A stretch of 32,000 nucleotides of DNA from Clostridium pasteurianum (GTDB lineage Bacteria > Bacillota > Clostridia > Clostridiales > Clostridiaceae): contig NZ_MCGV01000001.1 of the NCBI RefSeq assembly GCF_001705235.1, forward strand, positions 3,010,181 through 3,042,180, written 5' to 3'. Shown here one piece after another: positions 251 to 27,132 of the stretch (positions within the stretch are counted from its first letter, which is position 1; every line of letters begins with the position of its first letter). The notes beneath the pieces are model-generated. The model did no database searches. It saw only the letters and a program-made list of their open reading frames with translations, and was not told the DNA's origin. A program made the position numbers and the translations under genes.

Positions 251-487
251 CTTTCCATAGTGAAATGGAGGAAAGGTGTCCTTGTTTTTATTTTAAGGAA
301 AGGAATAGTATTGGGGGAACGGTTTAAATAAAATTCAATAAGTCTTGCCGCAAATTATAAAAAAACTTAGAAATTTTAATTTGTTTGAGCTTTTTTTCAG
401 CGATTTATTAAAATTTATTAGTTCTTTTATAATTTGTAGCTTAGACTTATGAGTTTTATTTAATGTTTCCTAAATACTACTCCTTCC
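251..487 (+). repeat. Long-hairpin repeat element, copy 1 (stem-loop 251-275, hairpin 297-487)
   Basis: CTTTCCATAGTGAAATGGAGGAAAG at 251-275 is shared with the copies at 5094 and 21966. Arms 297-380 and 405-487 are near-complementary. The apical loop TTGTTTGAGC-N7-CAGCGATTTAT is shared with copies 2 and 3. Upstream GGAAAATTTAAA (224-235) also occurs before copy 4, so the left boundary may be near 223. Confidence 0.8.
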
Positions 488-520
488 CTAATATGCTATA
501 CTAGAAATGAGGTGATAGCA

Positions 521-1150
521 ATGCTTAAATGGAGAGAACTGTATGATGAGTGTTTAGAATGTCATAAATGTGCACTTGGTGAAAATAGAAAAAATATGGT
601 TTTTGGTGAAGGAAATCTTGAATCAAAATTGATGTTTATAGGAGAGGCTCCAGGAGCTGACGAGGATAGGCTTGGAAGACCTTTTGTTGGAAGAGCAGGT
701 CAACTTTTAACTAAGGGATTAACTACTTTAGATTTATTGAGAGAAAGAGATTATTATATAGCAAATATATGTAAATGCAGACCGGAAAAAAATAGAACCC
801 CGTATGAGGATGAGGCAGATAGTTGTCTTCCATATTTAAGAAATCAGTTTGCCTTGGTAAAACCCAAAATAGTTGTATTATTAGGAGCAACTGCCATGAA
901 GTTTGTGATGGAGCCAGCCTTAAAAAAAGTTTTAGAGAATGGCAGTGAAGACGATATAAATAATGAAATTAAAAACTCTGTAAAAGGTGGTCAAATGAGG
1001 ATTACAAGGGATAGAGGAAAATGGCTTAAAGTTAAAGGAATTTATATGATGGCAACCTTTCATCCAGCAGCATTGTTTAGGGATGAAGCTAAGAAAAAAA
1101 TATTTTGGGAGGATTTGAAGTTAGTTAAAGCTAAGTATGATGAGCTGTGA
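521..1150 (+). CDS. Uracil-DNA glycosylase, family 4 (Fe-S type)
   Basis: GEAPGADED and FVGRAGQLL motifs, C-terminal HPAALFR, and Cys residues (CLECHKC, ICKC) typical of family-4 UDG. The ATG at 521 lies 6 nt after GAGGTGA; the ORF-track start at 512 is a GTG with no SD. Confidence 0.85.
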
Positions 1151-1161
1151 GGTGATTTATT

Positions 1162-4100
1162 ATGTTTAATGTAACTGAGGATAGTATTAAACAGTGGATG
1201 AAACCCAAAATATACACGGAATCCTTAAGCTTTTATGAAAATGATAATATTAGTAGCATACAAATAAACGAGAGCCATAATGAATTTTATAATGCAAATT
1301 TCGTTGAACTAAAAGGAGAAGTAGAAGATTTAAATGGAAATGTACATGAGGCTCTCTTATTATTTAATGATAAAACAGGTATAAATATTATTAAATGCGA
1401 TTGCAAAAAATCCAAAATTGATGATATTTGCAGTCATGTTGGTGGTATTTTAATAAAATATGTAAGGGAAAAAGGATACATTAGTGATAAATCAAAAGAC
1501 TATTTTACCGAAAAGTTTTTAGATAGGATAAAATGTGATCTTATAAGGCGTGGTAAATCAGGAATTCCTGTTAATATGGAAATAAGGATTCATTATTTTA
1601 CAGAAGAATTTAATAGGAGTTATGCGGAGATAAAAGCAGGGGAAGAAAAATTGTATGTAGTTAGAGATATAAGTAAGTTTCTAAATTCAGTTTTGTTAAA
1701 TAAAAATATTGAATTAGGAAAAGAATTTACATACAATCGTGATAAATATTACATAAAATCAGAGGATAAAGAGACTATTAATTGTCTTTATGAAATCTAT
1801 AAGAATAACATTATAGGACTTGTACAAGATAACGAAAAAATGATTTCAGGCAAGAAGGTATATCTCATAGGGACCGATATTAGAAGGATAATGGAAGCAA
1901 TGAAAGATAGAATGTTCAAGTTCTCTATTGATGGAGAGGAAGATATTTCTGTAAGTATAACTAATAAATTTCCTCCAATATACATAAAGTTAGAACAAAA
2001 AAATGAATTCCTTCAATTAATATTAATGGGAGACACTCCTATATCACTTACATATGACAGCAAATACATATATTATAAAGAAAATATATATAGGCTAAAT
2101 GAATATCAAATGGGTGTTTTTAAATTACTGATTGGCGAATTTTTAAGAAATAGTAACATAATAAAATTTAGTGCGGAAAAATCTCAGGAAGTATTATCAT
2201 ATATACTTCCTATTTTAAGTCAATTGGAAATACGAAAGAATGTAGATGATAAAATCAATGAAAAACTTTATAATAAAATGCTAAAACCTGAGATTTATAT
2301 AGATAAATTTCATAGAGGCATGCTAATAAATGTTAGATATAATTATGATAATACAAATGCAAATAATGAAAAAAGTATTATTCTTAAGGATATAATGCTT
2401 GAGGTAGAAATTATACGTATTTTAAAAGAGTTTAAATTTGAAAAGTTAGAGACAGGATATGTAAATATTAATTTAGAAAATATAGTTCACTTTATGGCTT
2501 ATGGAATCGTTGAAATTCAGAAAAAGGGCTGCCAGGTTTTTTATTCTGAAGATTTTAAGAGCTATAAAGTATATTCTGAGTCAAGTTATAGAGGAAATAT
2601 AAGGCTAAATGATAGAAGTGAGCTTGAGATAAATTTCCAAATAGAAGGTGTTGATGCTGAAAAACTTCAAAACATATTTAATGCTATTGATGAAAAAAAG
2701 AAGTACTACGAATTAAAGGAAGGCAAATTTGTTGATTTAGATAACAAAGCTATAAAAAGTGTTAGAGATATGTTTCATTATCTTGACATAAGTCCTTTAA
2801 AGGCAGCTCAAACAGGCGTAGTGCTTTCAAAATATAATAGTTTTTATGTGGATAAGTATGTTGATGAAGAAAAGTTGGTATTTTTTAATAAGAATAAAAG
2901 GCTTAAAAAAGCAGTGAATTCATTAAAAAATGTAGATGATATAGAAATAAAATTACCCATTGAGTTTAAAGATGTAATGAGAGAATATCAAAAAAAGGGG
3001 TTTAGGTGGTTTAAGATACTTGACCATTTTGGATTTGGTGGGATACTTGCAGATGAAATGGGACTAGGTAAAACGCTTCAAACAATAGCTTTTATATGCT
3101 CAGAAAAAGAATACAGGAAACCAAGTATTATAGTTGTGCCTACATCAATAGTATACAACTGGCAGGAGGAAATAAAAAAATTTGCTCCTAAGCTTAAAGT
3201 TTTAATTATAAGCGGAAGTAAGCACGAAAGAAAAAAATTAATAAAAAACTGCATGGATTACAATGTTATTATAACTTCTTATCCTCTTATAAGAATTGAT
3301 ATAGAGGAGTATAGTAATATAGAATTTAAATATTGTTTTTTAGATGAGGCACAGTATATAAAGAATAAAGCTTCAATTTCAGCTAGAGCGGTAAAGAGAA
3401 TAAAGGCTAAAAATCGTTTTGCACTTACGGGAACTCCTATAGAAAATTCACTTTCAGAATTATGGTCTATATTTGATTTTATAATGCCTGGGTATCTTTT
3501 AAGTCATTCAAAGTTTGTAAAAAATTATGAGAAGCCTATTATTAAGGATAAAAATAGCAGGGCAGCAATTGAATTAAATAGACATATTAGACCGTTTATT
3601 TTACGCAGAATTAAGAAGAATGTAGTAAAGGAATTACCAGATAAAATTGAACATGAGATTTTAGTTGATATGACTAAAAAGCAAAAAGAAGTTTATCATT
3701 CATATCTTAAAAATGGAAGAAATAAGGTATATGAAAATATAAAAGATAAGGGCATAAATAATAGCAAGTTTATAATATTAGGCCTTTTAACAAGATTAAG
3801 ACAAATATGCAGTAATCCCGCTTCATTTATTAAAAATTATAGTGGAGAAAATTCTAAAATGGATGTGCTTATGGATATTTTAACAGATGGGATAGCAAAT
3901 GGTCACAGGATATTGGTATTTTCACAATTTGTAAGTGTACTTAAAATTGTGAAAGATAGACTTAATGAAGAAAATATATCGTATATGTACCTTGATGGAA
4001 GTACTAAAATGAAGGAAAGAGTTGAACTTGCAGATAGATTTAATATGGGAGATGGAAAGGTATTTTTAATATCACTTAAAGCTGGTGGTACAGGACTTAA

Positions 4101-4371
4101 TTTAGTAGGGGCTGATATTGTAGTACACTTTGATCCTTGGTGGAATCCAGCTGTAGAGGAGCAAGCTTCTGATAGAGCTCATAGAATAGGTCAAAAGCAT
4201 AATGTTGAAATTATAAAACTTATAGCACGTGACACTATAGAAGAAAATATATATAATCTCCAGAAAAAAAAGAAAATGATTGCAAATGCAGTAGTTGACG
4301 AGGTTAATTATACTGATGAAAATATTTTATTAAATTTGAAAGAAACAGAAATAAAAAAAATATTAGGCTGA
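1162..4371 (+). CDS. SNF2-family helicase with N-terminal SWIM zinc finger
   Basis: SWIM signature CDCKKSKIDDICSHV. Helicase motifs LADEMGLGKT (I), DEAQYIKN (II), LTGTPIEN (III) and QASDRAHRIGQ (VI). Starts 11 nt after the UDG stop, preceded by GAGGTGA. Confidence 0.9.
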   Translation: MFNVTEDSIKQWMKPKIYTESLSFYENDNISSIQINESHNEFYNANFVELKGEVEDLNGNVHEALLLFNDKTGINIIKCDCKKSKIDDICSHVGGILIKYVREKGYISDKSKDYFTEKFLDRIKCDLIRRGKSGIPVNMEIRIHYFTEEFNRSYAEIKAGEEKLYVVRDISKFLNSVLLNKNIELGKEFTYNRDKYYIKSEDKETINCLYEIYKNNIIGLVQDNEKMISGKKVYLIGTDIRRIMEAMKDRMFKFSIDGEEDISVSITNKFPPIYIKLEQKNEFLQLILMGDTPISLTYDSKYIYYKENIYRLNEYQMGVFKLLIGEFLRNSNIIKFSAEKSQEVLSYILPILSQLEIRKNVDDKINEKLYNKMLKPEIYIDKFHRGMLINVRYNYDNTNANNEKSIILKDIMLEVEIIRILKEFKFEKLETGYVNINLENIVHFMAYGIVEIQKKGCQVFYSEDFKSYKVYSESSYRGNIRLNDRSELEINFQIEGVDAEKLQNIFNAIDEKKKYYELKEGKFVDLDNKAIKSVRDMFHYLDISPLKAAQTGVVLSKYNSFYVDKYVDEEKLVFFNKNKRLKKAVNSLKNVDDIEIKLPIEFKDVMREYQKKGFRWFKILDHFGFGGILADEMGLGKTLQTIAFICSEKEYRKPSIIVVPTSIVYNWQEEIKKFAPKLKVLIISGSKHERKKLIKNCMDYNVIITSYPLIRIDIEEYSNIEFKYCFLDEAQYIKNKASISARAVKRIKAKNRFALTGTPIENSLSELWSIFDFIMPGYLLSHSKFVKNYEKPIIKDKNSRAAIELNRHIRPFILRRIKKNVVKELPDKIEHEILVDMTKKQKEVYHSYLKNGRNKVYENIKDKGINNSKFIILGLLTRLRQICSNPASFIKNYSGENSKMDVLMDILTDGIANGHRILVFSQFVSVLKIVKDRLNEENISYMYLDGSTKMKERVELADRFNMGDGKVFLISLKAGGTGLNLVGADIVVHFDPWWNPAVEEQASDRAHRIGQKHNVEIIKLIARDTIEENIYNLQKKKKMIANAVVDEVNYTDENILLNLKETEIKKILG

Positions 4372-4526
4372 AATTGTAAAATGATAATTTAAGGTATATA
4401 ATTTTAATATACTATGGTTACTAAAAGGGCATAATTAGTGATGATAATTATAAACATATCAGGATCAGCTTAATAATTAACTTATGCTTAGCATTGATTC
4501 TTATTATAATTAGGGGGGGAATATGA

Positions 4527-4994
4527 TTGAGTTACTATGCTGATGAAAAAAATTTTGAAATAAAATCACCTGTTGATGGAGCAATACTTGATATTTCTAA
4601 AGTCGATGATTATGTATTTTCCAAAAAACTTGCAGGAGATGGAGTTGCTGTAAGATTTAAGACAAATAAAATAACTTCACCTATCAATGGAATTGTGAAG
4701 TTGGTATTATGCACAAAAAACGGAGTAGGAATAGAAAGTGAGAATGGGATTGAGGTATTACTACATATAAATGTTGAAAAAGTAGCTAATAAAAAAGGAT
4801 TTTGTTTAAAGGTTAACGAAGGTGATACGGTAAATATTGGCGATGATATTCTTTGCATAGATGACAGTGTTCTTAAAAATGAGGAATTGACATTATGCGT
4901 AATAGTTACCAATATGAATGATGTTAAAGAAATACACAAAAATTCTGATCACATGGTTTCAAGGGAAGAACCTTTGTTTGCTGTAAGCATATAA
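4527..4994 (+). CDS. Stand-alone PTS EIIA(Glc)-like domain protein with an atypical active site
   Basis: Aligns by eye to E. coli Crr (GDGVAV, GIESENGIEVLLH, KGF, GD.V..GD). The phospho-His equivalent (H80) is present, but the second catalytic His is Asn (TKNG). TTG start 6 nt after AGGGGGGGA. Confidence 0.7.
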   Translation: MSYYADEKNFEIKSPVDGAILDISKVDDYVFSKKLAGDGVAVRFKTNKITSPINGIVKLVLCTKNGVGIESENGIEVLLHINVEKVANKKGFCLKVNEGDTVNIGDDILCIDDSVLKNEELTLCVIVTNMNDVKEIHKNSDHMVSREEPLFAVSI

Positions 4995-5014
4995 AGAGCT
5001 TGGACTAATATATG

Positions 5015-5050
5015 AAAGGGCGATGGAACTATATTCCATTGCCCCTTTTA
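5015..5050 (+). terminator. Intrinsic terminator after the EIIA-like gene
   Basis: AAAGGGCGATGGAA-CTATAT-TCCATTGCCCCTTT stem-loop followed by TTTT. Confidence 0.6.
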
Positions 5051-5093
5051 GCCTTAAGTAAGTAACTAAAAAAATTAATACTAAAGTTAAAAA

Positions 5094-5331
5094 CTTTCCG
5101 TAGTGAAACGGAGAAAAGGTTTCGTTGTTTTTATTCTAAATGAAGTAACAGTATTTTGGCAACGATTTAAATAAAACTTAATAAGTCTTGCTTCAAATTA
5201 CAAAAGGACTTAGAAATTTTAATTTGTCTGAGCATCTTTTCAGCGAGTTATCAAAATTTCCTAGTCCTTTTATAATTTGGAGCTTAGACTTATGAGTTTT
5301 ATTTAATGTTGCCAAAATACTGTTACTTCAT
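5094..5331 (+). repeat. Long-hairpin repeat element, copy 2 (stem-loop 5094-5118, hairpin 5140-5331)
   Basis: CTTTCCGTAGTGAAACGGAGAAAAG, then a TGTTTTTAT spacer. The basal 24 bp ATGAAGTAACAGTATTTTGGCAAC / GTTGCCAAAATACTGTTACTTCAT pair perfectly. The central part closely resembles copy 1 by eye. The right arm contains the telA stop codon. Confidence 0.85.
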
Positions 5332-6471
5332 CTTTTTCAAGTATTCAACTTTTAAATTATTAAGTTTATTCATACCCTCATCACGGAGCTTTTTATTTTC
5401 TTCTTCTATTCTTTCTGTCTCATTAATTCCATCCATTATTATTTTCCATGTTTCTTCAAGTGTCTCGATTTTTATTGATGGAGAACCGGTTATTTTTGCT
5501 ATATCAATACTTTGGTCTTTTATATTATTGGCATTTTTTAAAAGAAGTTCATTTGTAGCCTTATCTAAAGCTTCCATGGATTTTGCTACTGATTTTTGTC
5601 TTCTTAAAGTTATAGCCTGTATTAGACCATTTTTAAATACTGGTAGAGTTACTATAAAAGCAGAATGAATTTTACCTATCAGTTTATAGTTACCTTTCTG
5701 TATTGTTCGTATTTGAGGAGCTGTTTGCATAGAAACCATTTTTGCCATTTCAAGATCATAAAGTCTTTGTTTTAACATTTCAAGTGAATACTGCACTTCT
5801 TGAAGTTTAAGGGCATCTTCTTGAAGACCACTTTCTGCCTTTTCAGTCCAATAAGGTATGTCTTCACGTTCTATTTCTTGTATTGTAAGTTCACAGGCAG
5901 CAGAATATTTTTCAAGCTCTATGTAATAATCAAAATTTTGAGCAAACATTTCTTCAAGCATTTTGTTAGTATCCATTATTTCTGTTTTGTAGGAGCTTAT
6001 CCTAGAATAGATTCTGTCTATTTCAGTTCCAAAGCTCTGATATTTCTTTAAAATGCTCTGAACTGTTTTTTTGCCGGAATTAAATATTTTTGAAAAAAAT
6101 CCTTCTGGTTTTTCCTCAAGTTCCTGCTTATCAAATTTGCTCATTATTATAGTCAATTCCTTTAAAAGAGCACTGGAGTTTTCAACACTACTTAGCTTCA
6201 TTGTTTTTAATATTCTATCTGAAAACTGTGAAATTTGTTCAGCAGGAGCATTACCAAATTGCATTATTGAATTTATATCCATTACGTTCAGATTCTTTGA
6301 AATTTCAATTACTTCTGGAGAGTTTTTTAGTTTTTCATTTATTTGTTTTATTTTATCTTCTATTTCTTTATCTGTGTCGGAAATGTTATTATTGTCATTA
6401 TTAGAGATATCATTTTTTATGACTGTGTTATCTTCTTTATCATTATTAAAATTAAATCTCATTAAAGTCAT
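5323..6471 (-). CDS. telA: TelA / toxic anion resistance family protein (YceH-like)
   Basis: About 380 aa, coiled-coil rich, with the MQFGNAPAEQISQFSDRIL region typical of TelA (PF05816) as I recall it. Its ATG overlaps the upstream TGA (ATGA), indicating translational coupling. An alternative start is the ATG at 6462. Confidence 0.75.
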   Translation of the reverse strand: MTLMRFNFNNDKEDNTVIKNDISNNDNNNISDTDKEIEDKIKQINEKLKNSPEVIEISKNLNVMDINSIMQFGNAPAEQISQFSDRILKTMKLSSVENSSALLKELTIIMSKFDKQELEEKPEGFFSKIFNSGKKTVQSILKKYQSFGTEIDRIYSRISSYKTEIMDTNKMLEEMFAQNFDYYIELEKYSAACELTIQEIEREDIPYWTEKAESGLQEDALKLQEVQYSLEMLKQRLYDLEMAKMVSMQTAPQIRTIQKGNYKLIGKIHSAFIVTLPVFKNGLIQAITLRRQKSVAKSMEALDKATNELLLKNANNIKDQSIDIAKITGSPSIKIETLEETWKIIMDGINETERIEEENKKLRDEGMNKLNNLKVEYLKKMK

Positions 6472-8420: not shown

Positions 8421-9269
8421 ATGAAAATTGCTGTTTTGTCAGATATACATGGGAATTTAACTGCTCTTAATGCTGTACTTAAGGATATTAAAAAATTAGG
8501 CATTAATAAGTTTATAATTGCTGGTGACCATATCATAGATTGCCCAAATCCAAATGAAGTATTAGAAAAAATTAAAACTTTAGATGCATATATTATAAAA
8601 GGAAATAGAGAAGAATATTTACTAGATTATTATAAAGGAAAACATGATGAATGGAATAAATATAAGCAGATGGGAGCTATATTATATACATACAATATCA
8701 TAAGTGAAGACAATATGAAATATATTGATGGATTACCAGAACAATTGAGAATTTCCTTACCACAAATGGATGATATAAGAGTAGTGCATGGTTCACCGTA
8801 TAGAATTAATGAGGAACTTTTTCCAGACAAGCATCTTGAAAGGTTAGAAAAAACACTTAAAAATTTAAAAGAGCAAGTTTTAATTTGTGGTCATACACAC
8901 TATGCATGGAGTAAAGAGATAAATAATAAATTAATAGTAAATCCAGGATCTGTGGGTGTTCCATTTAATGAAAATAAATCTGCTGAATACGCTGTTTTAA
9001 CATGGAGTGGTGCTAAGTGGAAAGTTTCCCATCATCAAGTAAAGTATGACTTAAAAGAGTTACAGCAATTGTTTCTTGAAAACAAACTTTTTGAGAAATG
9101 TCAGGCTTGGTCCCGGCTAACACTTCAAAGCATAAAAGAAGGTAGGAATGTAACAATAGAGTTTATTAGATATGCTTATAAATTAGCTCAAAATGGTGGA
9201 GTTAGTGAACCGAAATTTGTGCCGAATAGCATTTGGGATATGGCAGAAAAACTTTGGTTTAATTCTTAA
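8421..9269 (+). CDS. Metallophosphoesterase (calcineurin-like phosphoesterase)
   Basis: DIHGN, GDH, GNRE and GHTH motifs in the canonical order. Confidence 0.85.
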   Translation: MKIAVLSDIHGNLTALNAVLKDIKKLGINKFIIAGDHIIDCPNPNEVLEKIKTLDAYIIKGNREEYLLDYYKGKHDEWNKYKQMGAILYTYNIISEDNMKYIDGLPEQLRISLPQMDDIRVVHGSPYRINEELFPDKHLERLEKTLKNLKEQVLICGHTHYAWSKEINNKLIVNPGSVGVPFNENKSAEYAVLTWSGAKWKVSHHQVKYDLKELQQLFLENKLFEKCQAWSRLTLQSIKEGRNVTIEFIRYAYKLAQNGGVSEPKFVPNSIWDMAEKLWFNS

Positions 9270-9490
9270 GCAAAATAATGTGATTAAAGAAATTAAAAAT
9301 TAAGTATAGTGGCAACTTTTCCTACAATTCACTAAGAAAAACTTTTAAATTTATAAACACCGCAATTCGCACTAATAGTGATGTTATCTTATATTGTGAG
9401 GGTTTCCAAGAGAAAAGTGGCGGAAAATCTGAAATTAAAACTATATAATGCATTAAATTATTTAAATGTTAGAAAAAGTTGTTCGCACTT

Positions 9491-9724
9491 AAAATTCCGT
9501 AGGTACGGAGGAATTTTTACATTGCTTTACTTCTTAAGCCAAATAACAATGATGAAGGAATGATTTAAAAGAATTCTAATAAAGCTTGGTAAAAAAATCA
9601 TAAAATACTTAGTGTTTTTAATTTGTTTGAGCTTTTTCTCAGCGAGTTATTAAAAACACTTAGGATTTTATGATTTTTTTGACTTAGCTTTATAGAATTC
9701 TTTTAATGTTCCTTCATCATTGTT
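9491..9724 (+). repeat. Long-hairpin repeat element, copy 3 (stem-loop 9491-9517, hairpin 9546-9724)
   Basis: Divergent stem-loop AAAATTCCGTAGGTACGGAGGAATTTT. Arms AACAATGATGAAGGAA... / ...TTCCTTCATCATTGTT pair over about 78 nt. The apical loop TTGTTTGAGC-N7-CAGCGAGTTAT matches copies 1 and 2. Upstream CGGAAAATCTGAAATTA (9421-9437) resembles the copy 1 flank. Confidence 0.8.
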
Positions 9725-10340
9725 ACTCGGCTTTTTCAACTAGTTTTGAAAAATATCTTTTTGGTATATAGCCTTGTTTAATTCCCTCCACAACCAATAA
9801 ATAGGTAGCTGTAGTATCAAATCTAGCATCATGAAAGTTTCCGTCTTCTTCAAAGTACTTTTGGCTCATTCTGTTAATATAAGATTCATCTATGCCTAAA
9901 AAGTTTACTACTTCTTCCAGCCTCGGCTTTTTATAATTGCCATGGTTATTTAGAATTTTACATATACCTTTGTAATAATTCATAGTACAAAAAATGTGTT
10001 TTGGATTAAAAGGTTTCTTACATTGAAATAATTCATGTTTCATGAACTTTAAATCAAAATTAACATTATGCCCTATAAAGATATCTGCATTTAGAAAATC
10101 AGGAAGCAAATTTTCTAAACTGTCCTCAAAAGATTTTCCACTACTTAGCTTGTACAAATCATCTACGCTAAAACCGTGAACTTTTTCTGCACTTGGCTCT
10201 ATATAATCAACTGAAAAGAAAAAATTTTCACCAATTGTTTTATTCGGTTTTACATCTGTATCAACAAGGATATAACTTAGCTGACAAATGCTTCCGGGCA
10301 TTAATCCAGTTGTTTCCGTGTCAAAAAATATCATTTTCAT
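9723..10340 (-). CDS. DEDDh 3'-5' exonuclease (DnaQ/PolC-exonuclease-like), stand-alone
   Basis: FFDTETTGL (Exo I), HNVNFDLKF (Exo II), HDARFDT (Exo III, His type). ATG lies 9 nt after AGGAGAC. Confidence 0.85.
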   Translation of the reverse strand: MKMIFFDTETTGLMPGSICQLSYILVDTDVKPNKTIGENFFFSVDYIEPSAEKVHGFSVDDLYKLSSGKSFEDSLENLLPDFLNADIFIGHNVNFDLKFMKHELFQCKKPFNPKHIFCTMNYYKGICKILNNHGNYKKPRLEEVVNFLGIDESYINRMSQKYFEEDGNFHDARFDTTATYLLVVEGIKQGYIPKRYFSKLVEKAE

Positions 10341-10452: not shown

Positions 10453-10458
10453 AATTAT

Positions 10459-10748
10459 TAAGTGCATTGATGGGAAGAGTAGTAAATGGAAGCAGTTAAA
10501 GAGAGCTGATGCTTGGTGAGATTCAGCGGTGCTAAGGTTTATGAACATGGCCCCGGAGCAGAATATCTGAAGTTTAGTAGGGTATTACGTTAGCAGACGT
10601 TACACTGCAGGGTGATAAATAATTTTAAGTTAGGAGTCACTTGTTGAGATTTTCATTGTGAGATGAAAATGAATTAGAGTGGTAGAGCGAAATTACGCCT
10701 CTAAATAAGAGTTTATACTTTTATTTAGAGGCTTTTTTATTTAATAAA
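10459..10748 (+). promoter_or_regulatory. T-box riboswitch leader, Met specifier
   Basis: Stem I start GATGGGAAGAGTAG, AGAGAG and GGTGAGA motifs, ATG codons at 10541 and 10546 in the specifier region. T-box sequence AATTAGAGTGGTAGAGCGA (10672-10690). Terminator GCCTCTAAATAAG...TTATTTAGAGGC followed by TTTTTT (10697-10748). Confidence 0.85.
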
Positions 10749-10761
10749 AGGAGTGATTTTA

Positions 10762-12702
10762 ATGGCAGAGAAGAAAAAATTCTATATTACAACGCCTATA
10801 TATTATCCATCTGCAAAGCTGCATATAGGAAACACATATACAACAGTTGCAGCAGATGCACTTGTAAGATTTAAAAGACTTCAAGGTTATGATGCTTTTT
10901 TACTTACAGGTACAGATGAACATGGTCAAAAGATTCAAAGAATTGCAGAAGAAAAGGGTATAACACCAAAAGCTTATGTTGATGAAATTGTTGCAGGAAT
11001 AAAAGACTTATGGAAAATGATGAATATAAGTTATGATAAGTTTATAAGAACCACAGATGATTATCATGTAAAAGCTGTGCAAAAGATATTTAAAAAACTT
11101 TATGATCAAGGTGATATTTACAAGGGGCATTATGAAGGATGGTATTGTACACCGTGTGAATCATTTTGGACTGAAACTCAGCTTGTTGATGGAAAATGCC
11201 CAGATTGCGGTAGACCAGTTGAAAAGACAAAAGAAGAAGCATATTTCTTTAAAATGTCAAAATATGCAGATAAGCTTATAAAATATATAGAAGATCATCC
11301 CGATTTCATACAACCTGAATCTAGAAAACATGAAATGCTAAATAATTTCTTAAAACCAGGGCTTCAGGATTTATGTATTTCAAGAACTTCTTTTGACTGG
11401 GGAATTCCAGTTACATTTGATCCAAAGCATGTAATTTATGTTTGGATGGATGCACTTACAAATTATATAACAGCTCTAGGATATGGTAGTGACGATGACA
11501 CTTTATTTAACAATTATTGGCCTTGTGATTTACATCTTGTAGGGAAAGATATAATAAGGTTCCATACAATATACTGGCCAATTATGCTAATGGCCCTTGG
11601 ACTTCCACTTCCTAAACAAATTTTTGGTCATGGCTGGCTTTTAGTTGACGGTGGAAAAATGTCAAAATCTAAAGGGAATGTTGTAGATCCAGTAGTTCTA
11701 ATAAATGAATTTGGAACAGATCCAGTTAGATATTATCTATTACATGAGATACCATTTGGATCTGATGGTTTATATAACAGCGAAATATTCATAAAGAAAA
11801 TAAATTCAGATCTTGCAAATGATCTTGGAAATCTTGTTTCACGAACTATAGCTATGATTGAAAAATACTTTGATGGAGTAATTCAGCCTCCTTGTGAAAA
11901 AGATGATATAGATAATGAACTAATTGATTTGGCAGTAAATCTTCCAGAAGTTTTAGATAAAGACATAAAGGCTCTTAAAATACCAGAAGCATTAGATCAC
12001 ATATGGGATGTTATAAAAAGAGCAAATAAGTATATAGATGAAACAACTCCTTGGATATTAGCTAAAGATGAAAATAAGAAAAAGAGACTTGGAACTGTAC
12101 TTTATAATTTAGTTGAAAGTCTTAGATTTGTAGCAGCTACAGTAACACCATTTTTACCTGATACAGGTGCAAAGATGAAAAAACAGCTTAATATAGAACT
12201 TGATTCATGGGAAAGCTTATCAGCTTTTGATGGAACAAGAGCTGGAATTAAAGTTTGTAAGGGAGAGGTAATATTCCCTAGAATTGATGTTGACAAAAAA
12301 TTAGAAGAGCTTAACAAAATAAAAGAGGAACAATTGAAGGCTAGCAACAAAAATAAAATGACACCTCTTAAACCGGAAATAACTATAGATGATGTTGATA
12401 AATTAGATTTAAGAGTTGTTAAAGTTCTTGAATGTGAATCGGTAAAAAAATCTAAAAAGCTTCTTAAACTTAAAGTTGAATTAGGTGGAGAAGAGAGACA
12501 GGTGTTATCAGGTATATCTCAATTTTATAAGCCAGAAGAATTGGTTGGCAAGAAGGTTGTGCTTGTGGCTAACTTAAAACCTGCAAAACTCATGGGTCAA
12601 CTTTCGCAGGGCATGATACTTGCTGTGGCAACTGATGACGATAGTAAATTGTATACTGTAGAGATACCGCAAGATATGCCTACTGGAAGTATTATAAGAT
12701 AA
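10762..12702 (+). CDS. metG: Methionyl-tRNA synthetase with C-terminal tRNA-binding domain
   Basis: HIGN (HIGH) and KMSKS motifs, zinc knuckle CTPCESF...CPDCGRP, C-terminal Trbp111/EMAP-like LDLRVVKVLECE. ATG lies 8 nt after AAAGGAG. Confidence 0.97.
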   Translation: MAEKKKFYITTPIYYPSAKLHIGNTYTTVAADALVRFKRLQGYDAFLLTGTDEHGQKIQRIAEEKGITPKAYVDEIVAGIKDLWKMMNISYDKFIRTTDDYHVKAVQKIFKKLYDQGDIYKGHYEGWYCTPCESFWTETQLVDGKCPDCGRPVEKTKEEAYFFKMSKYADKLIKYIEDHPDFIQPESRKHEMLNNFLKPGLQDLCISRTSFDWGIPVTFDPKHVIYVWMDALTNYITALGYGSDDDTLFNNYWPCDLHLVGKDIIRFHTIYWPIMLMALGLPLPKQIFGHGWLLVDGGKMSKSKGNVVDPVVLINEFGTDPVRYYLLHEIPFGSDGLYNSEIFIKKINSDLANDLGNLVSRTIAMIEKYFDGVIQPPCEKDDIDNELIDLAVNLPEVLDKDIKALKIPEALDHIWDVIKRANKYIDETTPWILAKDENKKKRLGTVLYNLVESLRFVAATVTPFLPDTGAKMKKQLNIELDSWESLSAFDGTRAGIKVCKGEVIFPRIDVDKKLEELNKIKEEQLKASNKNKMTPLKPEITIDDVDKLDLRVVKVLECESVKKSKKLLKLKVELGGEERQVLSGISQFYKPEELVGKKVVLVANLKPAKLMGQLSQGMILAVATDDDSKLYTVEIPQDMPTGSIIR

Positions 12703-17011: not shown

Positions 17012-18403
17012 TTGAGTCAGAAAAAGAATTACAGTAGAAGTTTTATAATTCTTCAAGAGAATGAAAAAGGATATGAGATATCTTCTGATAAACTTCCTAC
17101 AGGTTATGCAAAGATAGAAATAAAAAATGGCAAATGCAAGGTATCTTTTTATGTTCAAAATTTAAAGAAGATGTCTAAACCATATAGTATGCTGCTTGTT
17201 TGTGATAAAAAAAATACAAAAAAATTAATTCATTTGGGAAAAATTAATATAGATGAATATGGGAGATCAGAAATAAGCAGAGAATTTGAGGAAAGCGATA
17301 TAGCAGGAAGCGGTATACCTGTAGATAGAGTTGTAGGAGCATCTATTGCACAGGTTATAGAGGATAATATCATTGCTGTTATGAGTGGATTTAATGCTTC
17401 AGATGTATCAGATTCATGGAAAACATATCCTGTGGCTCAAGTAAAAAAGGAAACTGATGAAACAAATAAAGTAAGTGAGAATATAGAACAATCTCATAAG
17501 GATGATATTAGAAAAGACGAGGCTCAGGAAGCAGTATCAAAGAAAAAAGAGAATACAACTAATGTATTTGATGAATATGAAAAGAGAGTACAGGCGAAAG
17601 CAGACAAACAAGATGAAGAGGTAAACAAAGTAAAAGAAGTAAATGCAGTAAAAGAAGTAAAAGAAGTAAAAGAAGTAAATGCAGTAAAAGAAGTAAAATC
17701 AGAGAATACAGAAATTAGTAAAGAAAAGACCAAGGAAAAGACCAAAGAGAGACACCAAGATAAAAGGGACAATGCACAAGAAGATAGTGTGCAGGATAGT
17801 AGCAGCGAAGATGAAAGCAACAATAATGTAGAAGAAACTAGTACAGTAGAGGGAATCAATAAATTAGAAGATAATGATAATACAGATGAAATTAATAAAG
17901 TTAGTGATATAGAAGATAATAATTATGATTCATATCAAAGTGTAAATGAGGATGAAGAAGATTTGAGTGAACTTCCTAAGGGAAGAGTAGGAAAATTCTT
18001 TAGAAGTCTTACTAATGGACTTGAAGATCTAGGAGATGTTTTCCCAGATGTAAAGCGCTGCCAGTGGTATAAAATATCATCTGAATATCCTCAAAACATG
18101 TTTGATTCTCAAAGTTATAATAGATATGCTGTGATATATTACCCAATGTTAATGTATTATCCGTACATCGAAAAATATGGACATTATTTGCTAGGATATA
18201 AGTGTGATAAAAATGACAATATGAAATACATTGTATATGCAGTTCCAGGAACGAAAAAAAGAACAGAGCAGCCATTTGGAGGAAAAACTGGTTTTGTTTC
18301 ATGGATTCCGCTTGTAGATGGTGATGAAAAAGAGGATTCTCTTGGATATTGGCTTATGTTTTATGATTTCAAAAATGCAACTATAGCAGTACCTAAAAGA
18401 TAA
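17012..18403 (+). CDS. Hypothetical protein: N-terminal domain, acidic/Lys-rich low-complexity centre, aromatic-rich C-terminal domain
   Basis: 463-aa ORF. TTG start 9 nt after GGGAGG. Coding-like composition throughout. No family recognised. Confidence 0.7.
   Translation: MSQKKNYSRSFIILQENEKGYEISSDKLPTGYAKIEIKNGKCKVSFYVQNLKKMSKPYSMLLVCDKKNTKKLIHLGKINIDEYGRSEISREFEESDIAGSGIPVDRVVGASIAQVIEDNIIAVMSGFNASDVSDSWKTYPVAQVKKETDETNKVSENIEQSHKDDIRKDEAQEAVSKKKENTTNVFDEYEKRVQAKADKQDEEVNKVKEVNAVKEVKEVKEVNAVKEVKSENTEISKEKTKEKTKERHQDKRDNAQEDSVQDSSSEDESNNNVEETSTVEGINKLEDNDNTDEINKVSDIEDNNYDSYQSVNEDEEDLSELPKGRVGKFFRSLTNGLEDLGDVFPDVKRCQWYKISSEYPQNMFDSQSYNRYAVIYYPMLMYYPYIEKYGHYLLGYKCDKNDNMKYIVYAVPGTKKRTEQPFGGKTGFVSWIPLVDGDEKEDSLGYWLMFYDFKNATIAVPKR
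17621..17701 (+). repeat. In-frame 9-nt tandem repeat (GTAAAAGAA and variants, 9 units)
   Basis: GTAAACAAA GTAAAAGAA GTAAATGCA GTAAAAGAA x3 GTAAATGCA GTAAAAGAA GTAAAATCA encodes VNKVKEVNAVKEVKEVKEVNAVKEVKS. A second short repeat, GAAAAGACCAAG x2, follows at about 17722. Confidence 0.9.
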
Positions 18404-18435
18404 CAAAAGCATATTTAAAATGTGTAGGTGATAAT

Positions 18436-19074
18436 ATGAAGTTTGTAGTGGTAGACGGTAAGAAACTAGGAGCTATAATTGTTGTTATTGGACTCATGCT
18501 TGTATTATTCGGTATAGGAAATAATTTTAATGATAAAATAAGATCCACAGCTTATATCCAGAGCAATATGGGAAAATTGAAAGAGTATAAAATAAATGAG
18601 TTAAATATAAGTTATATGCTTCCAGAAAAATGGGTAACGAAGATTCAAAAATTTGGTGGCGGCGAAATTATATATCACAATGATTTTACAGATACGGCTG
18701 AAGGTATTAATGGATTTGTTGAGGTATGGAATATTAAGCAGGATTTGAAAACATTTTTAAATAACAGCAAAGAAGTTAGTATGGAGCAAAATGTTATAGA
18801 GAATTATACGATTCAAAATTTGAGTACAAAAATCGGTAATGGATTTTTAGTTAAATATATAATTAAAGATAAATATGAAAAGAAATATGTTGCCAATGAG
18901 TACTTTATAAAAGCGGGAAGTAAATTTATAAGATTTGCTTTTTATGTAGATAGTGAAAAATATAAAAATAATATGCAGCCACTTTTTAAAGCTATAATTA
19001 ACACTCTAAAATATGAAAAGAGTGTAAATTTAATTGATAAAACTAATTTTAAGTATTATAATAGGAGAAGTTAA
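18436..19074 (+). CDS. Hypothetical N-terminally membrane-anchored protein
   Basis: Hydrophobic segment LGAIIVVIGLMLVLFGIG near the N-terminus. AGGTGA SD. 32 nt after the preceding gene. Confidence 0.7.
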   Translation: MKFVVVDGKKLGAIIVVIGLMLVLFGIGNNFNDKIRSTAYIQSNMGKLKEYKINELNISYMLPEKWVTKIQKFGGGEIIYHNDFTDTAEGINGFVEVWNIKQDLKTFLNNSKEVSMEQNVIENYTIQNLSTKIGNGFLVKYIIKDKYEKKYVANEYFIKAGSKFIRFAFYVDSEKYKNNMQPLFKAIINTLKYEKSVNLIDKTNFKYYNRRS

Positions 19075-19155
19075 GCACTTCTTCTTTTTTAATGTGCTTA
19101 AATAGATGTAGATTGTAGATTTTAGTACAAAAAACTTCAATTAGGGGGAATTCAG

Positions 19156-20010
19156 TTGAAGCGTAAGAAGCTCTTAAGCTTTTTTTTAGTTTTAGTTATG
19201 TCTCTTAGTTCAATGACTTTTACCGGGTGTCAAAGTTTTAGCAATAACATAAGTAACATTAAAGTTAAATTAGGTTTAAAAAATAATGACTTCCAATATA
19301 TAGAAGACGGTAAAATAAGTAAGATAGTTGTACAAAGTACAAGAGACAGCGGATTTAGATTTGTTGTTACTGATAAAAATGTAATTAATGATATATATGA
19401 TATGCTTTCTTCAGCTAAAGCTGTGAATAGTAGATCATCTTTAAAGCCTGATTATACATTTCAATTATATAAAAATGATAAGAAGGTATATGCTACTTTT
19501 AATTATATAGCAGGTCTCGACAAAAAGGACGGAGGAAATTTTTATAACAATAGTAAAAGTTATGTGGTTTCAAACAGAATAGATAGTGATATAATAAAGA
19601 ATTTTTGGGAAATAGATGGAACAAGAAGTTTAATAGATTTTAATTCTGTTTACTATAAAATGATTTCAGACGTAGTTGATAAGTATATTGCTTATAGTAA
19701 AAGCAGTAGTATAGGAATAGAAGTAGACAATGATATTAATGCAGCTAAGTTTATTCAGTCTACTAAGCTAGAAGATTTTAAGAAGAAATTGCCTTCCGGT
19801 GTTACACTTGTAGAAAGTACAGACGATGATACAAGCAAAGACTCTACATTGAATTTAACTACAGAAGGCTATGATCAAACAATATATAAGTGTACTGCCA
19901 CTTTTTATAATAAGAAGACTATGGAGCAAAAGAAATACTATTTGACTGGAAAATATATAAAAAGTTATTGGAATATATCTATTTCTGAAACTAAGCCTAA
20001 TAATTTTTAA
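19156..20010 (+). CDS. Hypothetical lipoprotein
   Basis: Signal peptide with lipobox (LSSMTFTGC). TTG start 6 nt after AGGGGGA. Confidence 0.7.
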   Translation: MKRKKLLSFFLVLVMSLSSMTFTGCQSFSNNISNIKVKLGLKNNDFQYIEDGKISKIVVQSTRDSGFRFVVTDKNVINDIYDMLSSAKAVNSRSSLKPDYTFQLYKNDKKVYATFNYIAGLDKKDGGNFYNNSKSYVVSNRIDSDIIKNFWEIDGTRSLIDFNSVYYKMISDVVDKYIAYSKSSSIGIEVDNDINAAKFIQSTKLEDFKKKLPSGVTLVESTDDDTSKDSTLNLTTEGYDQTIYKCTATFYNKKTMEQKKYYLTGKYIKSYWNISISETKPNNF

Positions 20011-21965: not shown

Positions 21966-22307
21966 CTTTCCATAGTGAAACGGAGGAAAGATGTCCATGT
22001 TTTACTCCAAAAGCGAATTAACATTGATGAAGTAACAATTTAAAAAAATCTAATGAATGTTATCATACAAGAGGCTGGGGCTTGGGTCAAAGACCCATTA
22101 TCCTTCTTAATCTAATATAAGCACTCTCTATATTATGAGAGTGCTTGTTTAGATAGATCTTAAAATATTTATAGATCAAAATTATTAGGCGTAAACATTA
22201 AGATAGCCTATATTTTATAAAGAAGGATAATGGGTCTTTGACCCAAGCCCCAGCTATGATAAGATTTATTAGATTTTTTTAATGTTACAAATCAATGTTA
22301 ATTCGCT
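21966..22307 (+). repeat. Long-hairpin repeat element, copy 4 (stem-loop 21966-21990, hairpin 22012-22307) with a different apical module
   Basis: CTTTCCATAGTGAAACGGAGGAAAG. Basal arms AGCGAATTAACATTGATGAAGTAACAATTTAAAAAAATC / GATTTTTTTAATGTTACAAATCAATGTTAATTCGCT. The apex is replaced by the 22074-22254 element. Confidence 0.8.
22074..22254. repeat. 181-bp element with perfect 35-bp GC-rich terminal inverted repeats, nested in copy 4
   Basis: GCTGGGGCTTGGGTCAAAGACCCATTATCCTTCTT (22074-22108) is the exact reverse complement of 22220-22254. The 111-bp core holds three small hairpins, including AAGCACTCTC-TATATTAT-GAGAGTGCTT. Confidence 0.85.
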
Positions 22308-25507: not shown

Positions 25508-25815
25508 ATTATTTAAATATAAAGCTATAAAATTGCAATGAAGGAAAGAGTAGATTTAACTGAGCTTTCAGAGAGCCGGGCTTTAAGCTGTGAACCGGCA
25601 GCGAGATTAAATTGAAGAACATTCTGGAGTAGTTAACCAAAATCTTTTTGAAAGTAGGCTTAAACGGATGTCCATCGTTAAAGGGAATAGGTATTGATGT
25701 TTTTAGAGAACATTTTGTACTGAATTGAGTTAGCATTTTGCTAAGTAGGGTGGCACCGCGTTATATACAATCGCCCCTATACCAATATTATATTTGGTAT
25801 AGGGGCGATTTTTTA
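25508..25815 (+). promoter_or_regulatory. T-box riboswitch leader, Asn (AAC) specifier
   Basis: Stem I start AATGAAGGAAAGAGTAG, AGAGAG and GTGAACC motifs. Specifier context TTGAAG-AAC-A-TTCTGGAGTA (AAC at 25618-25620). T-box AAGTAGGGTGGCACCGCG (25743-25760). Terminator ATCGCCCCTATACC...GGTATAGGGGCGAT followed by TTTTTT (25769-25815). Confidence 0.85.
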
Positions 25816-25839
25816 TGTAAAAAAATTGGAGGGCTATGT

Positions 25840-27132
25840 ATGAAAAAATTTTATGTCAAAGATGTATTTTCCATGAATGAAGGGGATGAAATAGTACTTA
25901 AAGGATGGGTTCATAAAATTTATGATCTCGGTCATGTTAATTTTATAAGACTAAGAGATAAAACAGGAATTGCTCAGCTAGTAACAACTAAGGAACAATT
26001 AGAAGGTCTTAGAAATGAAACTTGTATAGAAGTTAAGGGAAAACTAAGTAAAAATGAAAAAGCTATTAATGGAATGGAAGTTCAAGTAGAAGATATAAAA
26101 ATTTTAGGAAAAGTTTATTATGATAAATTACCTTTTGATATAAATGGTAAAAAAATAAATGCAGCACTTGAAACTCAACTTGATCATAGAAACATAAGTC
26201 TTAGAAAACCTAATATACTCGCAATTTTCAAAATTCAAGAACAAATTGGAGATTGTTTTAGAGATTTTTTAAGAGAAAATGGCTTTACAGAAATACATAC
26301 ACCTAAAATATTGGCATCAGGAACTGAGGGTGGAAGTGAGCTTTTCACTGTAAATTATTTTGATCATAGAGCATTTTTAGCTCAGAGTCCTCAATTTTAC
26401 AAGCAGATGATGGTTGGAGTTGGATTTGAAAAAGTTTTTGAGGTAGGTCATGCTTATAGAGCAGAGCTTCATAATACTTACAGACATTTAAATGAGTATG
26501 TGAGTCTTGATGCAGAAATGGGCTTTATAGAAGATGAGACTGAAATAATGGATCTTGAAGAAAGATTTATGAACTATTTATTCAAAAAATTAAGAGAGAA
26601 TTGTGCAAGGGAACTTGAAATGTATAATATAACTTTACCCCAAAAAGTTAACATACCAAGGATTCCTCTTTCAGAAGCACAGGAGATTGTTTATAAAGAA
26701 TATGGTAAAAGATCACCTAAGGGAGATTTGAATGCTGAAGGTGAAAGATTGTTTGGAAAGTATATTAAGGAGAAGTATGATAGTGATTTTGCTTATCTTA
26801 CAAAGTATCCTCTTTCAAAAAGGCCTATGTATACAATGCCTGATGATGAAATAGAAGGAGCCTCAAAGAGCTTTGATTTAATATATAAAGGTCTTGAAAT
26901 AACAACAGGTGGTCAAAGAATTCATGATCATGATATGCTTGTAGAAGCTATAAAGAAAAAAGGATTTAAACCAGAAGAGTTTGAATTCTATACGGAAAAC
27001 TTTAGATACGGTATGCCACCTCATGGAGGTTTTGCTATAGGTCTTGAAAGACTTACAATGCAGATATTAGGACTTGAAAATATAAGAGAAGCATCATTAT
27101 TGCCAAGAGATATGAAGAGAATAACACCATAA
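25840..27132 (+). CDS. aspS: Aspartyl-tRNA synthetase, archaeal/short type (likely non-discriminating)
   Basis: About 430 aa. QSPQFYKQ, motif 3 GGFAIGLERL, C-terminal LPRDMKRITP. The ATG at 25840 follows GGAGGG. The ORF-track extension covers the T-box terminator and was discarded. Confidence 0.88.
   Translation: MKKFYVKDVFSMNEGDEIVLKGWVHKIYDLGHVNFIRLRDKTGIAQLVTTKEQLEGLRNETCIEVKGKLSKNEKAINGMEVQVEDIKILGKVYYDKLPFDINGKKINAALETQLDHRNISLRKPNILAIFKIQEQIGDCFRDFLRENGFTEIHTPKILASGTEGGSELFTVNYFDHRAFLAQSPQFYKQMMVGVGFEKVFEVGHAYRAELHNTYRHLNEYVSLDAEMGFIEDETEIMDLEERFMNYLFKKLRENCARELEMYNITLPQKVNIPRIPLSEAQEIVYKEYGKRSPKGDLNAEGERLFGKYIKEKYDSDFAYLTKYPLSKRPMYTMPDDEIEGASKSFDLIYKGLEITTGGQRIHDHDMLVEAIKKKGFKPEEFEFYTENFRYGMPPHGGFAIGLERLTMQILGLENIREASLLPRDMKRITP

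Follow-up and report, generated by a model that had tools for sequence, protein, structure and literature searches.

A layered, terminator-like palindromic repeat of a narrow Clostridium clade with base pairing kept up by compensated changes

The SPRITE repeat of S. pneumoniae consists of a long AT-rich stem followed by a long T tract and lies between convergent genes near their 3' ends; no target-site duplication (TSD) was found for it, and it has been suggested to be co-opted as a terminator (PMC3049150). REPIN hairpins commonly show compensatory changes between their two sides, and the hairpin itself has been argued to be the unit of selection (Bertels & Rainey 2011, PMC3116915). The classical bacterial MITEs (Correia/NEMIS, RUP, ERIC and bcr1), reviewed in PMC3184786, are non-coding sequences of less than 400 bp with inverted-repeat termini and long hairpins at the RNA level, whose presence varies between relatives, and they can supply terminators, stop codons or processing sites.

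The window, by which we mean the whole 32,000-nucleotide stretch of Clostridium pasteurianum DNA analyzed here, contains four copies of a palindromic repeat that we compare with these systems below, every one of them on the + strand. Four odd intergenic palindromes of 200-350 nt seen in the window are these same copies. Copy 3 is an imperfect hairpin of ~85 bp at 9536-9733 (~200 bases overall). The initial annotation had treated it as a single hairpin structure within 9420-9724, a range that stops 9 nt short of the end of the right arm and includes, ahead of the hairpin, a module (9491-9518) that was left undescribed. The hairpin is real, but it is one part of a layered mobile repeat, and its bulge lies exactly at the junction of an outer and an inner layer. 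The copies and the parts of copy 3 are as follows.

251 to 488, + strand: copy 1, A-type, with the 5' module at 251-275 and the hairpin at 297-488.
5094 to 5331, + strand: copy 2, A-type, with the 5' module at 5094-5118 and the hairpin at 5140-5331.
9491 to 9518, + strand: 5' module of copy 3, a hairpin AAAATTCC-GTAGGTAC-GGAGGAATTTT and then T's, terminator-like on both strands.
9536 to 9562, + strand: outer left arm of copy 3, family consensus GCGAAGTAACAATG..GAAGGAAC, with its partner at 9707-9733.
9563 to 9564, + strand: 2-nt extrahelical R-T bulge (A-T in copy 3) at the seam where the outer stem meets the inner palindrome.
9565 to 9622, + strand: inner left arm of copy 3, with CTTGG at 9585-9589, CTTAG at 9608-9612 and a 1-nt A bulge.
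9623 to 9648, + strand: asymmetric apical region of copy 3, TTGTTTGAGCTTTTTCTCAGCGAGTT, with U·G/G·U pairs on the + strand only.
9649 to 9706, + strand: inner right arm of copy 3, with CTTAG at 9659-9663 and 9683-9687 opposite the left-arm boxes, giving two T·T mismatches.
9707 to 9736, + strand: outer right arm of copy 3 (to 9733) and T-run (9732-9736), covering the end of the convergent RNase_T-family gene.
21966 to 22307, + strand: copy 4, C-type interior within the family outer arms, with an A-type 5' module at 21966-21990 and the hairpin at 22012-22307.

Four parts make up the unit, which is ~240-345 nt long: the 5' module, which is a small hairpin resembling a terminator; an outer stem of ~16-28 bp; a palindrome inserted in the loop of that stem, which occurs as types A, B, C and others; and a T-rich tail that follows the right arm. 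Inverted repeats form both the outer arms (GCGAAGTAACAATG.../...CATTGTTACTTCGC) and the inner arms; the 5' module stands outside them, at one side, and makes the unit asymmetric. All four window copies, and most of those elsewhere, have the 5' module ahead of the long hairpin. The small hairpin of the module contains GGAGG and is followed by T's, and two sequence types share the same pairing, CTTTCCRTAGTGAAAYGGAGGAAAG in copies 1, 2 and 4 and AAAATTCCGTAGGTACGGAGGAATTTT in copy 3, where a terminator scan gave matches inside the module on both strands (9495-9510 on + and 9509-9496 on -). The B-type module starts with TAAAAT, and in some copies TTGnnn stands 15-18 nt upstream of it, a feature that is not conserved. 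The B and C inner layers have A7...T7 ends.

The inner arms of copy 3 (9565-9622/9649-9706) are complementary at 81% and the outer arms (9536-9560/9709-9733) at 92%. As RNA the copy folds with ~-99 kcal/mol on either strand (z of -13.0 on + and -16.1 on - against shuffles) and as DNA with ~-60 kcal/mol (z of -15.5 and -14.8), and no shuffle equalled it in either form. Its apical region, the most conserved stretch of the family, is common to copies 1, 2 and 3. The outer stem of copy 2 is complementary at 24/24 positions, and the interior of copy 4 is larger than, and different from, those of the other window copies. A coding role was rejected: two C. neuense copies have an open frame of 43 codons, which is interrupted in other copies and missing from the A-type. 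A Pfam search with the 61-aa ORF at 9378-9563 gave no match.

Compared by description, with no sequence relationship expected, the Clostridium repeat resembles SPRITE in that both are AT-rich, non-coding, dispersed Firmicute repeats of one species group each, with a long stem and a T-rich tract far longer than those of a normal terminator and with A-run/T-run ends (compare the A7/T7 of the B and C inner layers). Both are also enriched between convergent genes, lie close to the 3' ends of coding sequences and have no established TSD. The Clostridium repeat differs in being about twice as long (~240 nt versus ~105 nt), in its layering, in the second small hairpin module upstream and in its overlap with stop codons. 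With REPINs it shares a long extragenic hairpin of two inverted halves that bears compensatory changes and would fold as ssDNA or mRNA. REP sequences are, however, short, G+C-rich and tagged with GTAG/CGTC, with a single-copy RAYT gene as the partner of each family. The Clostridium arms are AT-rich without GTAG/CGTC and have CTT(A/G)G as their conserved box, and the unit also has a 5' module and keeps a constant orientation relative to gene ends. Membership in REP/RAYT was rejected, since no G+C-rich REP with a GTAG or CGTC tag is present. The size, the lack of coding capacity, the terminal inverted repeats, the long hairpins and the dispersed presence and absence between relatives are those of MITEs. 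Unlike MITEs, which conserve their terminal inverted repeats only, the whole Clostridium unit is palindromic with covarying helices; it is also asymmetric. Two further candidates were set aside: a plasmid single-strand origin (ssoA), as the apex reads CAGCGA and not the CS-6 sequence TAGCGT, the copies are multiple and chromosomal, and the plasmid collection held nothing similar; and IS200/IS605 end structures, which the repeat does not match. A literature search returned no description of the repeat family. The family is undescribed, and its kind, that of interspersed palindromic, terminator-like repeats, is known; it is unusual in being layered, in having a 5' module at one side, in its same-strand CTTAG/T·T boxes and in overlapping stop codons.

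To define the range of the family, we scanned one genome per species, in a collection that lies outside the source species, with a pattern of the apical loop and passed all 45 resulting loci through nhmmer. True matches were found only in Clostridium neuense (9 loci), C. guangxiense and C. hydrogenum, the other 34 loci being chance. Further copies came from the loci of TelA homologues and from a metagenome scan, so that ~25 copies are available outside the window, in these three species and in related metagenome bins. A pattern scan of viral contigs gave 42 loci, none of them a real copy by nhmmer, and BLAST against plasmid and phage collections gave nothing similar. Searches of Rfam 15 at the gathering threshold and at permissive E-values returned only sub-threshold plant miRNA-precursor models, which are generic hairpins. 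The repeats are confined to a narrow Clostridium clade made up of the source species, C. neuense, C. guangxiense, C. hydrogenum and related bins. The genes of the window share ~70-77% DNA identity with those of C. neuense, in which one locus (L013) is syntenic with window positions 500-5700.

Fourteen copies from four or five species were aligned, and RNAalifold gave a consensus structure of 76 pairs, 37 of which have changed on both sides; in helix 1, the outer stem, this holds for 11 of 16 pairs. Standard pairs fill 96.3% of the cells, compared with 85.0 ± 0.6% after shuffling and 41-47% when the partner is slid by 1-3 columns, and cells with changes on both sides number 127, compared with 40.5 ± 4.8 shuffled and 4-18 slid by 1-3 columns, cell counts that overstate independent events because the aligned copies are kin. 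At the apex, C-G varies to U·G at columns 96-119, 100-115 and 104-111. Pairwise comparisons gave 21 compensated doubles and 9 single-arm changes between copies 1 and 3 (3.1 doubles expected with independent arms), 10 and 6 between copy 3 and the C. neuense L013 copy (0.74 expected), and 5 and 9 between copies 1 and 2 (0.40 expected). The doubles are therefore 7- to 13-fold over independence and exceed the single-arm changes at higher divergence. They are found inside subfamilies too (22 pairs in the A-type and 20 in the B-type). Single-arm changes plateau at ~9 per comparison while doubles go on accumulating, which is the pattern expected if mismatches are transient. The covariation is far above chance, and base pairing along the whole ~85-bp hairpin is kept up by compensated changes.

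These counts bear out the observation in the initial annotation that copy 3 has the apical loop of copies 1 and 2 on a stem that differs in sequence and keeps its pairing. The paired changes that it listed are present in the sequence: GGAATAG/CTACTCC in copy 1 (with one A·C) and GTAACAG/CTGTTAC in copy 2, GGGGAAC/GTTTCC and TGGCAAC/GTTGCC, and AATAAGTCT/AGACTTAT and AATAAAGCT/AGCTTTAT. Its argument for selection on the folded structure was to be given up if compensatory changes were not in excess and the bulge varied. Compensated changes exceed single-arm changes both within and between subfamilies, and the bulge is invariant, so that the argument holds.

Covariation of this kind may also arise as a by-product of DNA-level processes, with the palindrome homogenized by intra-element conversion, by repair on extruded hairpins or by copying of an arm at each transposition, and with no selection on the fold. 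That double changes are seen even between copies that are 6-9% diverged would be in keeping with such processes. The irregularities of the hairpin, however, should be erased by them and have been kept. All 14 aligned copies retain the 2-nt R-T bulge of the left arm (columns 36-37, unpaired in the consensus), the 1-nt A bulge, and, at two places, a left-arm CTT(A/G)G opposite a right-arm CTTAG. Both facing boxes read alike on the + strand and so produce a T·T mismatch in the middle, with a T·C in copy 2 as the sole exception. The asymmetric apex CAATYTGTYTGAGC...CAGCGAGTTATTGAAA is likewise present in 14/14 copies, as is a recurrent G·T pair, across subfamilies that differ at half of their pairs, and in the B-type copies of C. 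neuense a 7x10-nt internal loop persists in the outer stem. Given that homogenization would erase such irregularities and drift would vary them, their constancy is the strongest argument for selection on the fold or on a protein that reads it, and we regard homogenization alone as an improbable account of the covariation.

The bulge had been noted earlier in the four window copies, where the left arm reads RRTTTAAA and the right arm TTTAATGTT, and was proposed as a possible recognition determinant, of the kind read by some ssDNA recombinases and RNA-binding proteins. Its conservation is confirmed, with the same bulge in 14/14 aligned copies, but no ssDNA recombinase, integrase or transposase was found near any copy, and its position at the junction of outer stem and inner palindrome may make it a historical seam as much as a recognition determinant. 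A hairpin-specific recombinase of the attC or the IS200/IS605/RAYT kind would place units at ORF ends, and there are likenesses to attC: a hairpin of variable sequence with conserved extrahelical bases, whose start coincides with or overlaps the stop codon of the ORF before it, and one mildly favored strand. The stop codon lies in a terminal pair ..AAGTAAC / GTTACTT.. that is reminiscent of the R''/R' boxes. Set against this, the boxes do not fit the attC consensus (R'' RYYYAAC and R' GTTRRRY), AAGTAAC and GTTACTT each matching at 5/7 positions. The ~195-nt hairpin is longer than known attC sites and is without the REP tag GTAG/CGTC. Its host is a Firmicute, and the copies are scattered singly beside syntenic housekeeping genes rather than arrayed as cassettes. 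In the 32-kb window no gene was found for intI, a Y1 transposase or any other recombinase; no transposase, RAYT or recombinase was found in any fetched locus, including the annotated loci L046-L049, and no RAYT (Y1 transposase) gene was seen in ~250 kb of examined sequence. A substrate for a recombinase of these known kinds is accordingly very improbable.

Which strand folds could not be decided by eye in the initial annotation, which had noted that both G·U-compatible and C·A mismatches occur. Both do occur, with G·T in 60 cells and A·C in 21, or in 21 and 15 columns of the 14-copy alignment, and the strand test is significant by cells and not by columns. Much of the G·T excess comes from the apex and from one inherited G·T column; outside the apex the ratio is 18 to 15 columns, so nearly balanced in the main stem that homogenization would be consistent with it, as if neither strand were privileged. 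The + RNA hairpin is the more stable in 12/14 copies (mean -6.35 kcal/mol; Wilcoxon p = 0.006, for copies that are not independent). U·U mismatches are milder than the A·A mismatches that the boxes would form on the opposite strand. The 10 nt after the right arm contain a mean of 5.6 T, compared with 3.2 in the background (56% versus 32%); this tail often reads A/C-TTTTT(T)AT, with a run of at least 5 T in 11-12 of 25 copies, and gives the unit on the + strand the look of an oversized intrinsic terminator. Counts, folding and tail thus mildly favor the + strand as the one that would fold, while copy 3 taken alone folds equally well on both. In head-to-head pairs the transcript of the neighboring gene enters the adjacent hairpin in the - sense, so that reading the + strand as a terminator would not account for all copies.

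The genes beside the copies are ordinary. In the window they encode TelA, an RNase_T-family exonuclease, a flavin reductase and UDG, and elsewhere MurE, MCP, LDH, an M18 aminopeptidase, an AraC regulator, a HAD hydrolase and an ABC permease. In 15/20 copies a convergent gene adjoins the right arm, with gaps of -14 to +49 nt, and the right arm lies -15 to +16 nt from a stop codon in ~20 of 27 copies. The element contains the ends of nine or ten ORFs, whose final codons in every case read GCG AAG TAA or a variant of this frame, for example ATG AAG TAA for TelA in the window, which ends inside copy 2 (stop at 5323-5325), and GCC GAG TAA for RNase_T. The last codons and the TAA (9723-9725) of the RNase_T-family gene (9723-10340, - strand) lie within the outer right arm of copy 3, and the stop of the flavin-reductase gene (22308) comes one base after the end of copy 4. 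Copy 1 lies upstream of the UDG gene, with no convergent ORF. The protein ends have barely moved relative to genomes without the element (...IEYIKTIK* versus ...VEYLKKMK* for TelA and ...SKIVESF* versus ...SKLVEKAE* for RNase_T).

How such an overlap may come about is suggested by an orthologous pair of loci. In L049a a native TAG abuts the element (...AAA AAA TAG|CGAAGTAAC), whereas in L013 of C. neuense (...CAT AAG AAG TAA C) ~8 nt have been lost and TelA ends in the AAG TAA of the element, a comparison that points to a deletion route. Targeted insertion at ORF ends may be an alternative to it. Relative to L049, the left arm of L013 has changed from GCA to AAG and the base of the stem is still paired; such a change of the left arm at the TelA site, in step with a right arm under coding constraint, is also what homogenization would produce.

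This tight and polar placement at the stop codons of housekeeping genes in several species, together with the covariation and the invariant irregularities, would suit a structured RNA that serves the host as a 3'-UTR stabilizer, an RNase III site or a terminator shielding convergent genes from read-through. On the same reading the hairpin, alone or together with the 5' module, might tune termination or tmRNA tagging of the upstream ORF from beside the stop codon, or act as an independent sRNA. The U·G/G·U pairs, the better folding on one strand and the T-rich tail fit such a role, as does the outcome of the terminator scan, which finds no other terminator between the genes that flank copies 3 and 4. 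Orthologous genes nevertheless do without the element (L046, L048 and L049), the type at one site differs between close relatives, and nested and half-deleted copies are common. No conserved promoter of the unit's own was found, with 60 promoter-like matches in the region against 71.5 in shuffles, and where the element overlaps a stop codon, the gene concerned reads the strand that pairs less well. We regard a host function as possible but rather unlikely to be what maintains the fold.

The layers can be told apart from the sequence of the left arm, which is conserved in its outer part through GGAACRRT, just beyond which the interior types diverge. The interiors that follow are the A-type and B-type palindromes, which have a common apex, and the C-type in copy 4; an extra palindrome stands ahead of the B-type in L029 and L035, and L013b has an unrelated interior. 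Nested composites (L029, L035, L011 and L048b) and deletion derivatives both occur. The site at the 3' end of the TelA gene is occupied differently from one genome to the next.

Window: an A-type unit.
L047, a 94%-identical relative: the same outer right arm, with a C-type interior.
L013, C. neuense: a B-type unit.
L049, a MAG: a B-type unit, with the interior nearly deleted.
L048, C. guangxiense: a ~90-nt hairpin with similar ends, without outer stem and without 5' module.
L046, GCA_000785855: a 64-nt spacer with an ordinary terminator only.

At the RNase_T site of copy 3, L048 and L049 are empty and have ordinary terminators after the gene. Because units are present, absent or of another type at orthologous sites, and because they nest and leave deletion derivatives, we conclude that they are, or were, mobile, as small non-autonomous DNA with turnover, nesting and deletion. 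Copies occur singly or head-to-head, 4-12 kb apart, and head-to-head pairs with a homologous spacer are found at three C. neuense loci and one C. guangxiense locus. Relative to replication, judged by GC skew, ~17 copies are co-oriented and 9 anti-oriented, which amounts to no strong rule. Attempts to define a TSD failed: the TTTAA/TTAA that borders the inner layer is a palindrome, the left boundary of the unit is undefined, and the nested inserts of L029, L035 and L011 have junctions that are replacements or deletions and not clean insertions. Nor was a close relative with a clean empty site found, the intergenic DNA of L046, L048 and L049 being too diverged to align and the next RNase_T homologue only 75% identical. 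Many right ends read ..TTTAT, and such an end recalls the bcr1 target.

Taken together, these data are best explained, with a probability that we put at roughly 0.55, by an oriented and layered mobile repeat of the MITE/REPIN/SPRITE kind, terminator-like and with its fold under selection. To survive, a lineage of the element would have to retain a single-stranded fold of defined shape, more likely that of the + strand, either as RNA in the form of an oversized Rho-independent terminator or as ssDNA during mobilization. The fixed irregularities would then be contacts for a putative trans-acting protein. Once inserted, the element is predicted to take over transcription termination, after which the redundant native spacer would be deleted until the ORF sets a constraint, so that the element comes to abut the stop codon. 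What is selected may be the spread of the element itself and not a benefit to the host.

Within this framework, a hairpin-reading enzyme of a kind so far unrecognized in Clostridia could read the four same-strand CTTAG boxes with their T·T mismatches and the R-T bases and could place the units at stop codons, a proposal that we consider a long shot. Were it true, the repeat would be a mobile "stop codon plus terminator" cassette that rewrites the 3' ends of genes, and translation termination would be coupled to a giant 3' hairpin.

The repeat is a Gram-positive addition to the few bacterial interspersed repeats in which the fold, and not the sequence, is demonstrably maintained, with half of the pairs replaced while every kink is retained. 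Its placement at stop codons is unusually strict, and it supplies the last codons and the TAA of ordinary genes. For annotation, it accounts for several altered gene 3' ends. The family offers a tractable system for the study of hairpins as terminators, as obstacles to the ribosome or as transposition intermediates.

The right arm of a unit of this dispersed hairpin repeat lies on or next to the stop codon of a convergent gene, a rule that is broken by copy 1 (window 251-488), which has no convergent ORF and instead precedes the start codon of UDG by about 34 nt. The C. neuense spacer orthologous to this site (L013:3271-3426) contains no element. Head-to-head pairs of units recur at four loci (L026:5586-6158, in C. 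neuense; L043:1789-2171; L001:6004-6416; and L048:7368-7935, in C. guangxiense), each combining one A-type and one B-type unit with their 5' modules facing each other across a homologous spacer of ~35-90 nt, and such a pair takes up the entire gap between two convergent genes.

Two of the C. neuense B-type copies carry an open frame of 43 codons (L013:7440-7580 and L026:5945-6085), which starts at a TTG 3' of the GGAGG in the 5' module, runs through the left arm and stops just beyond the apical loop, giving the product ..KEQFKKI.INL..SICLS.FSASY*. Because this frame is interrupted in other copies and missing from the A-type, we consider it probably non-coding. The C-type interior of copy 4 has a hairpin of its own, richer in G+C (window 22115-22150; AAGCACTCTC..GAGAGTGCTT), and a related motif, GGGC..GCCCATTATCCTTCT, is inserted in the apical region of the L011, L035, L043 and L048b copies.

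Three consecutive plus-strand ORFs of 463, 212 and 284 aa (window 17012-20010), none of which had a Pfam match, are surrounded by a housekeeping block that is otherwise well annotated. The window also contains two T-box leaders.

10458-10705, T-box leader (122 bits), preceding the methionyl-tRNA synthetase gene (10753-12702)
25529-25781, T-box leader (103 bits), preceding a class II aminoacyl-tRNA synthetase gene (25738-27132)

A Phage_integrase-family gene of 186 aa adjoins RNase_T in C. guangxiense (L048:5412-5972) and in a related MAG (L049:5668-6228). The window lacks this gene, and there the space next to RNase_T is filled by copy 3, which may be no more than a correspondence of position. 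A 28-nt near-repeat (window 9251-9278 versus 9519-9546, 24/28 identical) has its first copy over the end of the metallophosphoesterase gene with its TAA. Its second copy is part of copy 3, where it follows the 5' module and precedes the left arm. This near-repeat could be due to chance, or it could be a footprint of the arrival of the copy 3 unit.
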